Assembly: GCA_023818645.1 (NCBI GenBank)
Contig: JAMWCJ010000001.1
Location: 9,584 to 73,583 of the forward strand
From: Candidatus Omnitrophota bacterium
GTDB taxonomy: Bacteria > Ratteibacteria > UBA8468 > B48-G9 > JAFGKM01
DNA length: 64,000 nucleotides
Direction of reading: 5' to 3'
The position numbers were made by a program, and so were the translations under genes. The notes below the pieces were generated by a model. It searched no databases. It worked only from the letters and a program-made list of their open reading frames with translations, and had not been told where the DNA came from. Shown here one piece after another: positions 8,093-62,118 of this stretch (the stretch's first letter is position 1; every line of letters begins with the position of its first letter).

Positions 8093-8106
8093 GTATAATT
8101 TAAGTA

Positions 8107-8180
8107 GCGGCCATAGTTCAATTGGATAGAACATCGGGTTGCGGACCCGAGGGTTGCCCGTTCAAGTCGGGCTGGCCGCA
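8107..8180 (+). tRNA. tRNA-Arg, anticodon GCG as read
   Basis: Hand-folded cloverleaf. Acceptor stem GCGGCCA/TGGCCGC, D stem GTTC/GAAC, anticodon stem TCGGG/CCCGA with loop TTGCGGA, T stem GCCCG/CGGGC with loop TTCAAGT, discriminator A. No CCA is encoded. Confidence 0.8.
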
Positions 8181-8185
8181 ATTTT

Positions 8186-8261
8186 CGGGGCGTAGCTCAG
8201 TCTGGTTAAGAGCGCTTGGTTCGGGACCAAGAGGTCTCCGGTTCAAATCCGGACGCCCCGA
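8186..8261 (+). tRNA. tRNA-Pro, anticodon CGG
   Basis: Acceptor stem CGGGGCG/CGCCCCG with C1:G72 (typical of bacterial tRNA-Pro). Anticodon loop TTCGGGA. T loop TTCAAAT. A T-run follows the gene. Confidence 0.85.
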
Positions 8262-8275
8262 TTTTTTAAAATAAG

Positions 8276-27005: not shown

Positions 27006-28698
27006 TTTTTTACCTGAAGAAGTTATAAGTAAAATAGCAGGTGGTGAAGTAATAGAGAGTCCTGCATCTGTTTTAAAAGAACTTATTGAAAATTCAATTG
27101 ATGCAAATAGTAAAAAAATTGAAATTAAAATAGAAAATTCAGGTAAAAAACTTATATATGTTAAAGATGATGGAGAAGGAATAGAAGCAGATGATATAGA
27201 AAAAATATTTGGAAGATATTCTACAAGTAAAATAAGAACAAAAGAAGACCTTTATAATATAAGAACACTTGGATTTCGCGGAGAAGCACTTTATAGTATT
27301 GGTGCTGTTGCTGATGTAATTTTAAAAAGTAAAACAAAAAATAGTGATATTGGAAAAGAGATTCATATAAGGGGTGGAAAAAAATTAAGTATAAAAGAAT
27401 GTGCTATGCATGATGGAACAATTTTAGAGGTAAGAGAATTATTTTTTAATATACCAGCAAGAAGAAAATTTTTAAAATCAGATATTACTGAATTTAGAAA
27501 AGTTTTTAATATTTTTATTCAATATGCAATAGGTTTTCCAGAGATAAATTTTATATTTGAAAATGAAAACAAAACAATTTTAAATCTAATCCCATCTGAA
27601 AATTATTTAAAAAGATTTTGCGAGATTTTAAACCTAAACGAAGACTATTTGATATACAGACAAAAAAAAATTGAAAATATTGACCTTGAAATAATTATAG
27701 GTGATATTAATTTAAAAAGGCCACAAAAAAATATGCAGTTTATTTTTGTAAATAGAAGACCTGTGTATAATTATATCCTTTCTTCAGCAATAAATAATTT
27801 TTACCAATCATTTTTTTCATCTGAATTCTTTCCTGTATTTGCTGTTTATTTACAAATTGCAAATCAAAATATAGATGTGAATATACATCCTACAAAGAGA
27901 GAAGTAAAAATTAAAGATGAAGATCGGATAGCAAAGAAAATTATTGATATAATTAATGAAATTTTGAAAGAAGGAAAAATCAAAAAAATTGAAGCGGAGA
28001 GGAAATATTTAGGACAGAAAGAAAAAGTAAGAATAAATGAAAAAATAAAAGAAGAAAATAATTTAATCTTTCAAACTAAAAAAACAGAAGAAAAAGAAAT
28101 CTATGAATTATTTAAGGAGGAGAAAATAAAAGTAATTTTAAGAGAAAAATTAAAAAGGAGTTGTTTTATTGGAGTTTTTAAATCTAAATATTTAATTTTT
28201 GAATCAGATGATTCTCTATTAATAGTTGACCAGCATGCAGTGATGGAAAGAATTAACTATGAAATCTTTATTAATCAGATTGAAAAAGGAAAAATTCAGA
28301 TACAGCAGATTTTAACTCCAATTATTATTGAACTTAATTATGAAGAAATGATAATCTGGGAGAAAACAGCGAAAATTTTAGAAAGATTTGGGTTCCTTAC
28401 AACAAGATGGAGTGAAAATAAAATAGCAATACATGGATACCCTTCATTGATAAAGGATATAGAGTTTGCAATAAGAAATATTTTAGATGAAAAAGACATA
28501 AAAAAATATGATAAAGAAGAGGTTTCAAAAAGAGCATGTAGAGTTTCAATTATGGCAGGAGAAAAAATTACAGACAAAGAGGCAAAATATTTAATTGAGA
28601 AATTGGCAAAGTGTAAAAATCCTTTCGTTTGTCCCCATGGAAGACCAATAATAATAGAGTTAACAGAGAATTTTCTTGATAGACAGTTTTTAAGATAG
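26992..28698 (+). CDS. mutL: DNA mismatch repair protein MutL
   Basis: GHKL ATPase N-terminus LPEEVISKIAGGEVIESPASVLKELIENSIDA. Overlaps the mutS stop. Confidence 0.9.
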   Translation: MGKVNFLPEEVISKIAGGEVIESPASVLKELIENSIDANSKKIEIKIENSGKKLIYVKDDGEGIEADDIEKIFGRYSTSKIRTKEDLYNIRTLGFRGEALYSIGAVADVILKSKTKNSDIGKEIHIRGGKKLSIKECAMHDGTILEVRELFFNIPARRKFLKSDITEFRKVFNIFIQYAIGFPEINFIFENENKTILNLIPSENYLKRFCEILNLNEDYLIYRQKKIENIDLEIIIGDINLKRPQKNMQFIFVNRRPVYNYILSSAINNFYQSFFSSEFFPVFAVYLQIANQNIDVNIHPTKREVKIKDEDRIAKKIIDIINEILKEGKIKKIEAERKYLGQKEKVRINEKIKEENNLIFQTKKTEEKEIYELFKEEKIKVILREKLKRSCFIGVFKSKYLIFESDDSLLIVDQHAVMERINYEIFINQIEKGKIQIQQILTPIIIELNYEEMIIWEKTAKILERFGFLTTRWSENKIAIHGYPSLIKDIEFAIRNILDEKDIKKYDKEEVSKRACRVSIMAGEKITDKEAKYLIEKLAKCKNPFVCPHGRPIIIELTENFLDRQFLR

Positions 28699-28702
28699 AT
28701 TT

Positions 28703-29329
28703 TTATTTAAAAACAAATCCTGTCTCTTTTGCCCATAAAAGCAAATCAAGTTCAGATGGTTTAATATTAATTTTTTTTGAAAATTCAATAAATTTTTTTT
28801 CAATTTCAAGATATTTTTTTTGAGACAATCTCTCTGGAATCTCTTCTATAATATTATACATTTTTAAATTTTTTAAAATATGCCTATCAAGAATTGCAAT
28901 ATTATCTCCAAGGCCTATATTTCTTAAAAAGTGACTTGTCTCTTTCATCCCAAAGCCCTTTATTTTTTTAACAAGAAATTTTCTAAGAGCATGGATATCT
29001 TTGGTATTTTTTATATAATCTTTTAAATTTTCTCGAAAAAATTCTTTTCTTGCCTCAATTATATAGTTTGCTTTCTTCTTGTTAAATCTAATTTTTTTCA
29101 AATTTTCAGCAATCTGTTTTTCTGTCCCATAAAAAAGTAAATTTTGATTTATTAACATCTCTATTGTTTGCCAGCAAATTTCTGCTTTTGTTTGTGGAGT
29201 TAAAAGACAGAAACATAATTCAGCAAAAATTTCTTTATCATCCTTTTTTTCGCTAAATTCTTTCAATCTATTTCTAATTTCAAACTTAAATTTTTTATAA
29301 ACTTCTTTAAGTTCTTTTATATTTTCCAT
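28703..29329 (-). CDS. ogg: 8-oxoguanine DNA glycosylase/AP lyase, short Ogg2-type (HhH-GPD)
   Basis: 208 aa. Helix-hairpin-helix GFGMKETSHFLRNIG followed by ILDRH (Asp of the GPD motif). Confidence 0.7.
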   Translation of the reverse strand: MENIKELKEVYKKFKFEIRNRLKEFSEKKDDKEIFAELCFCLLTPQTKAEICWQTIEMLINQNLLFYGTEKQIAENLKKIRFNKKKANYIIEARKEFFRENLKDYIKNTKDIHALRKFLVKKIKGFGMKETSHFLRNIGLGDNIAILDRHILKNLKMYNIIEEIPERLSQKKYLEIEKKFIEFSKKINIKPSELDLLLWAKETGFVFK

Positions 29330-29350
29330 TTAAATAAAATTAAATAAAAA

Positions 29351-29473
29351 TGTCTCTGGCAACACCTACTCTCCCACCTCCTCGCGAAGGCAGTACCATC
29401 GGCGTCGGGAGGCTTAACGACCGTGTTCGGGATGGGAACGGGTGTTGCCCTCCCGCTATGGTTGCCAGAGACA
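29351..29473 (-). rRNA. rrf: 5S ribosomal RNA
   Basis: The reverse complement contains the universal 5S motifs CCCGAACACGG, GTTAAGC, GCCGATGGTACTG and GGGAGAGTAGG. The terminal helix TGTCTCTGGCAAC/GTTGCCAGAGACA pairs perfectly. The ORF-track entries 29317..29508(-) and 29350..29568(+) are artefacts of this RNA. Confidence 0.85.
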
Positions 29474-29478
29474 TTATA

Positions 29479-29508
29479 ATTATACCCTATTTTATTTCTC
29501 TCTGTCAA
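29479..29508 (-). promoter_or_regulatory. Near-consensus sigma-70 promoter driving the 5S rRNA gene
   Basis: On the minus strand: TTGACA (29503-29508), an 18-nt spacer, then TATAAT (29479-29484). The start is predicted within about 5 nt of the mature 5S 5' end. A T-rich tract follows the 3' end. Confidence 0.55.
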
Positions 29509-29540
29509 GTCCTCCTAAAAATACCTATAAGGTGTAAAAT

Positions 29541-33536
<3,996 letters not shown>

Positions 33537-43254: not shown

Positions 43255-43282
43255 TTGACAAAATTAACAAATTAAATATAAT
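43255..43282 (+). promoter_or_regulatory. Consensus sigma-70 promoter giving an essentially leaderless dapF mRNA
   Basis: TTGACA (43255-43260), a 16-nt spacer, TATAAT (43277-43282), then only 8 nt to the dapF ATG. There is no Shine-Dalgarno sequence. Confidence 0.4.
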
Positions 43283-43290
43283 TTTTAACT

Positions 43291-44085
43291 ATGGAATTTT
43301 TAAAAATTGCTGGTTCAGGTAATGACTTTGTAGTTGTTGATAATAGAAAGAATTTAATAAGAAATAAAAAATCATTGGCAATTAAATTATGTGATAGGAA
43401 ATTTGGAATTGGTGCAGACGGTTTACTCCTGCTTGAGAACTCCAAAAATGCTGACTTTAAAATGAGAATTTTCAATCCTGATGGAAGCGAAGCAGAAATG
43501 TGTGGAAATGGATTGAGATGTATTTTAAGATTTATCTATGAAAAATCAATTTCAAAAAAGAAAAATTTAAATATTGAAACAAAAGCAGGCATTCTTGAAG
43601 GTAAGATCAAAGGAAAAATTATAAAAGTAAGAATGAAAGTAGTAAATTCGCCAAAATTAAATATAGAAATCCCCATTGAAAATTTTAAGATAATTGGCAA
43701 TTTTGTAAATACAGGAGTTCCACATACTGTAATATTTGTTGATGATGTAGAAAAGGTAAATTTAGAAGAAATTGGACCAAAAATAAGATACAATAAAATT
43801 TTTGGAGAGAGTGGAACAAATGTTGATTGGGTTGAAATTGTAAAAAATGGGATTATAAGAATAAGGACTTATGAAAGAGGCGTTGAAGGAGAAACACTCT
43901 CTTGTGGAACTGGTGCTTGTGCATCTGCAATTATAACATCTATAAAAGAAAAATTTAAATCTCCTATATTTGTTATTACAAAAAGTAAAGAAATATTGAA
44001 AGTTTATTTTGATAAAGACTTTGAAAAAATTTACCTTGAAGGAAAAACCTTATTGACATTTAAGGGAATCTGGATTGGAAGTTGA
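43291..44085 (+). CDS. dapF: Diaminopimelate epimerase
   Basis: GSGNDFVVVD, CGNGLRC, and the second catalytic Cys in SCGTGACAS. Confidence 0.9.
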   Translation: MEFLKIAGSGNDFVVVDNRKNLIRNKKSLAIKLCDRKFGIGADGLLLLENSKNADFKMRIFNPDGSEAEMCGNGLRCILRFIYEKSISKKKNLNIETKAGILEGKIKGKIIKVRMKVVNSPKLNIEIPIENFKIIGNFVNTGVPHTVIFVDDVEKVNLEEIGPKIRYNKIFGESGTNVDWVEIVKNGIIRIRTYERGVEGETLSCGTGACASAIITSIKEKFKSPIFVITKSKEILKVYFDKDFEKIYLEGKTLLTFKGIWIGS

Positions 44086-61299: not shown

Positions 61300-62118
61300 A
61301 TGAAAGAATTTGAAAGAGTTCAAGAAAGTACAGAGTTCATTAAGAGTAAAGTTAAAATTAAACCTGAAATTGGAATAATTTTAGGAACTGGATTGGGTGC
61401 TCTTGCAGATAGAATAGAAGAAAAAATAATTATTCCCTATAAAGAAATACCCCACTTCCCAGTTTCAACTGTAGAAACACACCTTGGAAATTTAGTTTTG
61501 GGAAGAATTGGGAATAAAAATGTAGTTGCAATGCAAGGAAGATTTCATTTGTATGAAGGATATAATCCATATCAAATTGTTTTTCCAATAAGGGTTATGA
61601 AATTGCTTGGAATAAATATATTGATTGAGTCAAATGCTGCTGGTGGTTTAAATCCTCTTTATAAAAAGGGCGACCTTGTTATAATAGTTGACCATATAAA
61701 TCTTACTGGACAAAATCCCCTTGTCGGAGAAAATGACGAAAGGTTTGGACCAAGATTCCCTGATATGTCTTGTCCTTATTCTAACGAACTTATTGAAATA
61801 ACTGAAAGGGTTAGTATTGAAGAAAAAATACCTTTAAAAAAAGGTGTTCTTGTTGGACTTCTTGGGCCTAATCTTGAAACTAAAGCAGAATACAGATTTT
61901 TAAAGATAATAGGTGCAGATATGGTATGTATGTCAACTGTTATAGAGGTTATTGCAGCGGTTCATCTCGGGCTTAAAATACTTGGGATTTCTGTTATTAC
62001 TGATTTATGTTTACCTGATGCATTAAAACCGGTTTCATTTGAAGAAATAGTTGAAGTTGCAAATTCTGCTGAACCTAAATTGACAAAAATAATAGAAAAA
62101 GTTATAATAAATCTATGA
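61300..62118 (+). CDS. Purine nucleoside phosphorylase (PunA/MTAP trimeric PNP-I family)
   Basis: GIILGTGLG and ADMVCMSTVIEV (compare GADMVGMSTVPEV). Confidence 0.8.
   Translation: MKEFERVQESTEFIKSKVKIKPEIGIILGTGLGALADRIEEKIIIPYKEIPHFPVSTVETHLGNLVLGRIGNKNVVAMQGRFHLYEGYNPYQIVFPIRVMKLLGINILIESNAAGGLNPLYKKGDLVIIVDHINLTGQNPLVGENDERFGPRFPDMSCPYSNELIEITERVSIEEKIPLKKGVLVGLLGPNLETKAEYRFLKIIGADMVCMSTVIEVIAAVHLGLKILGISVITDLCLPDALKPVSFEEIVEVANSAEPKLTKIIEKVIINL

Follow-up and report, generated by a model that had tools for sequence, protein, structure and literature searches.

This locus raises the question of whether a 5S rRNA gene lying between xerD and ogg is genuine and, if it is, how it could be transcribed away from 16S and 23S genes. 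The stretch of DNA that was analyzed, 64 kb in full length, is referred to here as the window. A preliminary description had read a gene of about 123 nt with a paired terminal helix on the minus strand, and the covariance-model scan bore out its identity, strand, and extent, as follows:

29354 to 29469, minus strand: 5S rRNA gene (Rfam RF00001), full-length covariance-model match of 98.1 bits
29461 to 29473, minus strand: 5′ arm of the terminal helix (13 bp), made of a UGUC extension and canonical helix I, invariant in the aligned lineages
29351 to 29363, minus strand: 3′ arm of the terminal helix (13 bp), from sequence reading and folding

The match compares with a gathering score of 38 (E value, 3.7e-20), covers model positions 1 to 120 of 120, and contains only two non-canonical pairs. 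In this alignment, the three-way junction with helices I to V and the conserved loop motifs are all present. Including the 4-bp helix extension, the gene runs from 29473 to 29351 (minus strand) as a GC-rich segment with UGUCUCUGGCAAC as its first bases and GUUGCCAGAGACA as its last, and the GC content of the match is 62%, versus approximately 27% for the genome. The RNA with its flanks folds with a closing helix of 13 to 14 bp (z-score of -5.6 against shuffles), which was recovered by both single-sequence and alignment folding; RNAalifold, run on four near-identical 5S sequences, returned no covariation signal. Three mechanical ORFs of 63, 44, and 72 amino acids overlap the gene and are spurious, two such products having been pointed out before, and gene callers placed no ORFs over the 5S in the contigs of relatives; annotators should mask all three. 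The 5S gene is genuine.

The claim that no 16S or 23S gene accompanies it within 64 kb also held, since Rfam at the gathering threshold gave no SSU or LSU match in the whole window. The only other RNA genes detected there under the same threshold were tRNA-Arg, tRNA-Pro, and tRNA-Gly. The DNA free of 16S and 23S extends for 29.3 kb on one side of the 5S and for 34.5 kb on the other, and the immediate upstream space has no room for a 23S gene, being occupied by the coding sequences of xerD and ligA. Both rRNA genes were likewise absent from the loci retrieved for relatives with the 5S as their center (±6 to 10 kb), and the word orphan is used here for these two scopes, the 64-kb window and ±6 to 10 kb in relatives. 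The protein-coding genes flanking the 5S are as follows:

29541 to 30407, minus strand: xerD tyrosine recombinase (TIGR02225, 333.3 bits against a cutoff of 329.6)
28703 to 29329, minus strand: ogg, N-glycosylase/DNA lyase (PF22175, 194 bits; NCBIfam equivalog NF002305)

The ligA gene upstream of xerD encodes an NAD-dependent LigA, and the xerD start overlaps the ligA stop by 4 nt, with the xerD stop at 29541 to 29543. All of ligA, xerD, 5S, and ogg are on the minus strand, with mutS and mutL running toward them from the opposite side. The possibility that xerD is the integrase of an island inserted at the 5S was considered and rejected on the basis of its XerD equivalog score and because the gene stays with ligA where the 5S is absent.

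A near-consensus promoter had been proposed directly upstream of the 5S, and the sequence there indeed reads TTGACA-18-TATAAT (29508 to 29479), with the following elements:

29503 to 29508, minus strand: -35 hexamer TTGACA, part of a 12/12 consensus site, invariant in all aligned relatives including L095
29479 to 29484, minus strand: -10 hexamer TATAAT, part of the same 12/12 site, with a conserved GG before it
29470 to 29472, minus strand: predicted transcription start, placed by geometry 7 to 9 nt past the -10 hexamer

This 12/12 match was the top site in a 2.3-kb scan (28300 to 30600). The -10 hexamer ends approximately 5 to 6 nt before the terminal helix, and a second TATAAT abuts it (29473 to 29478, minus strand). 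The predicted start falls inside the 4-bp extension of helix I, 0 to 3 nt upstream of Rfam model position 1. The discriminator between the -10 hexamer and position +1 is AT-rich, unlike that of the classical stringently controlled rRNA promoters of E. coli. When both strands of the window were searched for TTGACA-N16-18-TATAAT, three sites were found, versus a mean of 0.11 in dinucleotide shuffles, which never reached three. The two other perfect sites, located at 43255 to 43291 and 62080 to 62116 (both plus strand), comprise a TTGACA-16-TATAAT that ends 8 nt before the ATG of dapF and a TTGACA-17-TATAAT that ends 7 nt before the ATG of a 58-amino-acid zinc-ribbon ORF; the ORF that follows the latter resembles ribosomal protein S21 by eye only. 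With distances of 7 to 8 nt to an ATG, perfect sites therefore sit where starts are expected, and their geometry suggests leaderless starts at these two promoters.

Relatives carrying the 5S were reached through Ogg homologues of 62 to 78% identity. The order ligA-xerD-5S-ogg recurs in nine independent assemblies (the window, L081 to L085, L089, L093, and L095) deposited at NCBI, JGI, and ENA. Adjacency of 5S and ogg extends to 12 assemblies including the window; in L086, L087, and L096, the contig ends just upstream of or within the 5S. Regions encoding rRNA are often misassembled in metagenomes, and an error of assembly or binning might have joined a 5S fragment to unrelated DNA. Since both junctions recur in nine independent assemblies obtained from different samples and pipelines, such an artefact can be excluded for practical purposes.

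Sequences were compared across five lineages, i.e., the window, L081 (GCA_046296715.1), the L082 group (L082 to L085 form one lineage of 17 contigs), the L086 group, and L095. The 5S genes of these lineages differ at 2 to 7 of 124 positions and score 94.7 to 97.9 bits in the relatives. Their 94 to 98% identity, compared to 62 to 93% for the flanking proteins, indicates purifying selection on the 5S; LigA is 87 to 93% identical to that of the window in the four lineages where it is readable (it is missing from L086), and Ogg is 62 to 78% identical. In L095, a double change in helix III converts a U-A pair to G-C and is compensatory. The -10 hexamer is TATAAT in all lineages except L081, where it is TAAAAT, the preceding GG is kept, and the -35/-10 spacer measures 17 to 18 nt with a free sequence. 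The UGUC/GACA extension of the helix is invariant across the five lineages, as is TTTTT[A/G]TTT after the helix in relatives. Invariant signals next to a free spacer are the pattern expected from selection on a working promoter, RNA, and 3′ signal.

These data bear on the idea that the gene is a decaying 5S pseudogene or the leftover of a broken rRNA operon. A relic of a mobile element adjoins the 5S, and the locus lies at a point where the gene order of relatives differs, as might be expected of debris. Yet the model is matched over its whole length (98 bits, two non-canonical pairs), the 5S remains 94 to 98% identical where Ogg has drifted to 62 to 78%, helix III is kept paired by a compensatory change, and no 23S remnant was found nearby, and we therefore hold decay to be highly improbable.

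The same comparison indicates that the promoter is more than a lucky match, since the five lineages share the same -35 hexamer and almost the same -10 hexamer while the spacer varies freely. The 5S gene, judged from motif and conservation, has its own promoter. One could suppose instead that the 5S is cut by nucleases from ligA-xerD mRNA that reads through, the hexamers being chance occurrences in an AT-rich genome. The four genes follow one another closely on one strand, and weak promoter-like sites are indeed frequent in the 2.3-kb region (21 found versus 11.7 expected). However, only 0.11 perfect 12/12 sites are expected per window, and the two hexamers are conserved across lineages while the spacer and the upstream DNA change. 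Moreover, L086 and L087 carry a transposase remnant in place of xerD upstream and still have an intact promoter and 5S, and an mRNA-level promoter would hardly suffice for ribosomal amounts of 5S. Supply from the upstream mRNA is thus very unlikely, and a dedicated promoter is the reading that we retain.

The short spacer in front of this promoter appears to have a history of its own:

29509 to 29540, minus strand: 32-nt spacer from the xerD stop to the -35 hexamer, resembling the 3′ end of the transposase remnant of L086 and L087

The DNA immediately ahead of the 5S promoter is a decayed transposase remnant in L086 (1 to 522) and L087 (1 to 614). It resembles the integrase-core (rve) type by eye, contains many stop codons, and shows the C-terminal motif ...YNFNRPKQCLGYLTPIE; the reading frame, with ...EYNFNRPKQCLGYLTPIEILEEKKSLDK as its last residues, extends across the -35 hexamer. 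The L086 and L087 contigs each stop within the remnant, which suggests a multi-copy insertion sequence. The window spacer aligned locally with the last 30 nt of the remnant with a score of 26, which was reached by a fraction of 0.001 of shuffles. In a sub-lineage, the edge just upstream of the promoter was probably the target of an insertion sequence, most of which has been deleted in the window genome. The promoter predates this insertion event, given that L082 and L095 have the promoter without the relic.

On the other side of the gene, the T-rich tract that had been noted 3′ of the 5S was found at 29350 to 29342, followed closely by ogg:

29342 to 29350, minus strand: T-tract TTTTTATTT, a proposed leaky terminator, directly abutting the terminal helix
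29330 to 29349, minus strand: tandem duplication in the 5S-ogg spacer, two exact copies of the 10-mer TTTTATTTAA

A terminator scan of 28300 to 30600 returned no canonical terminator hairpin, and the arrangement differs from an intrinsic terminator in the usual sense, i.e., a short GC-rich hairpin with a loop of 3 to 8 nt followed by a U-run. Unlike such a hairpin, helix I closes a three-way junction of approximately 110 nt. Helix I and the U-run would be at best a non-canonical terminator, in which a 13-bp helix closes the whole 5S. The start codon of ogg lies 21 nt past the 5S helix (ATG at 29329), compared to 14 to 17 nt in relatives, leaving no room for a promoter, and the T-tract is consequently likely to be an incomplete stop. 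Helix I and the U-tract together would then probably act as a leaky terminator. The preliminary description had called the gene a free-standing, independently transcribed unit; the independent start stands, backed by the conserved promoter, while the 3′ end is perhaps not fully free-standing, with ogg starting so close by.

The ogg start codon is well supported by its alignment across all relatives and by the NCBIfam model, which spans residues 2 to 208. No Shine-Dalgarno motif precedes it. The longer distance in the window, 21 nt rather than the single-copy length seen in relatives, results from the tandem duplication of TTTTATTTAA. Only these 14 to 21 nt of non-5S DNA lie upstream of ogg, too little for a promoter. 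A separate ogg promoter within the 5S 3′ end or the T-tract was considered and rejected as the main route: the candidate TTGCCA at 29362 to 29357 had either the wrong spacing or no A at position 2, was not conserved in relatives, and was accompanied by no site of ≥9/12 in the scan. A weak start from a -10 element only may still occur.

In relatives without the 5S (L094, L097, and L098), ogg overlaps the end of a small Zn_ribbon_8 gene (FmdB-like, CxxC...CxxC), at 2184 to 3096 in L094, about 5870 to 6750 in L097, and 1 to 833 in L098. L094 is the MAG of L004 and L098 is that of L003. Upstream of the Zn_ribbon_8 gene, there is a promoter-like TTGACA-17-TAAATT in L097 and a weaker TTGACT site in L094; the L098 contig ends inside the gene, so that the upstream DNA is absent. 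No Zn_ribbon_8 homologue was found in the 64-kb window. This overlap, with a promoter-like site in front in L097 and L094, implies that ogg regularly relies on the preceding unit. Read-through from the 5S across a leaky terminator would be the simplest route to ogg expression, a proposal for which we see about equal grounds for belief and doubt. If ogg is truly fed in this way, the locus would tie a repair gene to rRNA synthesis in an unusual manner.

In the mechanism that we propose, RNA polymerase with the housekeeping sigma factor would start from TTGACA-18-TATAAT, approximately 7 to 9 nt beyond the -10 hexamer. This position falls within the opening bases of the 13-bp terminal helix and would leave almost no 5′ leader. 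Once the 3′ arm has been made, the closed helix I followed by UUUUUAUUU would act as the terminator, giving a 5S unit of approximately 125 to 135 nt from start to stop. The released RNA would be a few U residues longer than mature 5S and could be trimmed by exonucleases. Such a near-mature primary transcript would need little or no endonucleolytic processing. Termination would probably be incomplete, and ogg would be included in the transcripts that continue past the stop. We propose that a stable RNA of this genome can use its closing helix and the U-run behind it as a terminator, and the tRNA-Arg/tRNA-Pro pair of the window shares this layout. The transcription start, the terminator function, and the read-through into ogg are elements that we infer from sequence. 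Taken as a whole, we are confident that the locus is an unlinked functional 5S gene, which very likely would be transcribed independently into a near-mature primary transcript, probably with a leaky helix I/U-tract stop and read-through into ogg.

Whether this is the main 5S gene of the cell is a separate matter. A metagenome collection was scanned with a 36-mer from the conserved 5S core. An earlier 40-mer pattern containing CATAGCGGG gave no matches in metagenomes, as most relatives have CATGGCGGG at that position. The 36-mer returned clade-type 5S in the xerD-5S-ogg context only, from a collection that missed the known clade loci L083 and L085, and the 23S-linked matches all came from unrelated, GC-richer taxa. 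The locus might be an extra 5S copy beside a normal 16S-23S-5S operon elsewhere, rather than the only or main 5S of the cell. Orphan 5S genes beside complete operons are documented in Francisella tularensis, which has three operons plus an orphan 5S (PMC2737636), and in Helicobacter pylori 26695, where the orphan 5S is beside a variable plasticity zone (PMC1245399). Furthermore, MAGs commonly have no rRNA operons, and their absence from binned contigs carries little information. The metagenome scan speaks weakly against an extra copy, given the missed loci, and the strong purifying selection on the gene combined with a perfect promoter argues for heavy use. An extra copy is still a real possibility, although we lean away from it, and we infer that the locus is the working 5S gene of the cell. 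The orphans of F. tularensis and H. pylori 26695 likewise lie away from any 23S but are extras beside operon-linked 5S genes, whereas the window locus is syntenic and strongly conserved across a clade of an uncultured phylum. That the gene is the only 5S of this clade, a minimal, leaderless, self-terminating unit without endonucleolytic maturation that doubles as the promoter and 5′ leader of ogg, is a bolder proposal that we consider doubtful. If it is true, 8-oxoguanine repair capacity would be tied to the activity of an rRNA promoter via terminator read-through.

For LigA and Ogg, the closest proteins are encoded by MAGs that bear the name Candidatus Ratteibacteria or Candidatus Omnitrophica. 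According to a preprint, public databases often list Ratteibacteria genomes under Omnitrophica, and the group belongs with the PVC phyla (10.1101/2023.11.21.568195). Among 80 LigA loci of species-representative genomes, no 5S was detected by nhmmer and blastn, or by Rfam on eight of them. An arrangement unique to this genome, as these loci had suggested, was overturned by the Ogg-based comparison; the representatives are outgroups with other gene orders, which accounts for the lack of 5S among them. The closest four of the 80 loci keep DUF763-ligA-xerD, and after xerD there is a lolE-like permease in L002 (4047-) and L004 (6453-) and other genes in L003 (6026-). Neighbors of at least three kinds were seen after xerD: 5S-ogg, a lolE-like permease operon, and a small membrane protein with a radical-SAM-like gene, the last judged MiaB-like by eye. 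As read from these gene orders, the 3′ side of xerD is a recurrent rearrangement point and the upstream DUF763-ligA-xerD is stable.

The closest outgroups, L003/L098 and L004/L094, have no 5S at the locus. Compared to the window, genomes without the 5S show 84 to 85% identity in LigA and 78% in MutS, versus 87 to 93% and 80 to 91%, respectively, for those bearing it. With the 5S-less genomes being slightly more distant, xerD-5S-ogg looks like a derived arrangement that arose in one clade and has been kept since, and its location appears recent on the scale of the phylum given that the closest outgroups do not have the 5S here. In L097, a protein with zf_Rg, DEAD, Toprim, and Topoisom_bac domains, which fit reverse gyrase, is encoded approximately 2.3 kb downstream. 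This reverse gyrase-like protein hints that at least some of these organisms are thermophiles, and thermophily would fit GC-rich stable RNAs in an AT-rich genome.

Compared to the 5S of a canonical rrn operon, as in E. coli rrnB or in L088, L090, and L092, the window gene belongs to the same RNA family and shares its fold and the logic of a sigma-70-type promoter. It differs in having no 16S or 23S upstream and in a promoter that abuts the gene with no leader, so that no precursor would need to be cut out of a 30S-type transcript. A GAGCC...GGCTC hairpin with a T-run follows the 5S of L088, L090, and L092 at 25 to 40 nt downstream, whereas the T-tract of the window comes right after helix I and a protein gene begins 21 nt after the 5S. 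A partly similar layout was seen in L091 (Ga0209062_1000238, 1 to 700), where a 5S has its own TTGACA-17-TATACT promoter and a long flanking stem followed by T7. However, that gene comes after 16S-tRNA-tRNA with no 23S between, has a leader of approximately 70 nt and a long processing stem, and belongs to a GC-rich unrelated organism.

In Leptospira and Thermoplasma, rRNA genes are fully scattered, and the likeness to the window is a 5S transcribed separately from 16S and 23S, here in a different phylum. Brewer et al. (2020, ISME J 14:597), in surveying unlinked rRNA genes, reportedly dealt with 16S-23S linkage and not 5S. In eukaryotes, RNA polymerase III begins the 5S transcript at the mature 5′ end or right beside it and finishes in a T-run just past the terminal helix, so that little processing is needed; the promoter there is an internal control region rather than -35 and -10 hexamers, and the comparison concerns the way of working, with no mechanistic homology. 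A literature search found no published description of rRNA gene organization in Ratteibacteria or Omnitrophota. Stand-alone 5S genes were already known, so that existing knowledge is not overturned, and the compact promoter-RNA-T-tract layout and the possible coupling to ogg are the only mildly unusual aspects. The locus documents rRNA gene layout in a little-known uncultured phylum, and an orphan 5S embedded between single-copy genes offers such MAGs an rRNA marker that can be binned.

Similarly compact units were observed elsewhere in the window. At the tRNA-Arg/tRNA-Pro pair (8094 to 8262, plus strand), 7 nt lie between the end of GGTATAAT and the mature 5′ end of tRNA-Arg, 4 nt separate the two genes, and TTTTTT (T6) directly follows the acceptor stem/discriminator base of tRNA-Pro; neither gene encodes CCA. 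If its transcript is nearly leaderless, tRNA-Arg would require little trimming by RNase P at the 5′ end. A -10 hexamer 6 to 8 nt before the ATG, with no Shine-Dalgarno sequence, was seen for the genes at 43255 to 43291, 62080 to 62116, 23202, 33582, and 48915 (plus strand), and a Shine-Dalgarno-like 4-mer precedes about half of the 54 long ORFs in the window. The combination of a close -10 hexamer and a missing Shine-Dalgarno sequence makes leaderless mRNAs seem common in this genome. Together with the compact 5S and tRNA units, these apparent leaderless mRNAs suggest that the lineage trims its transcription units to a minimum.
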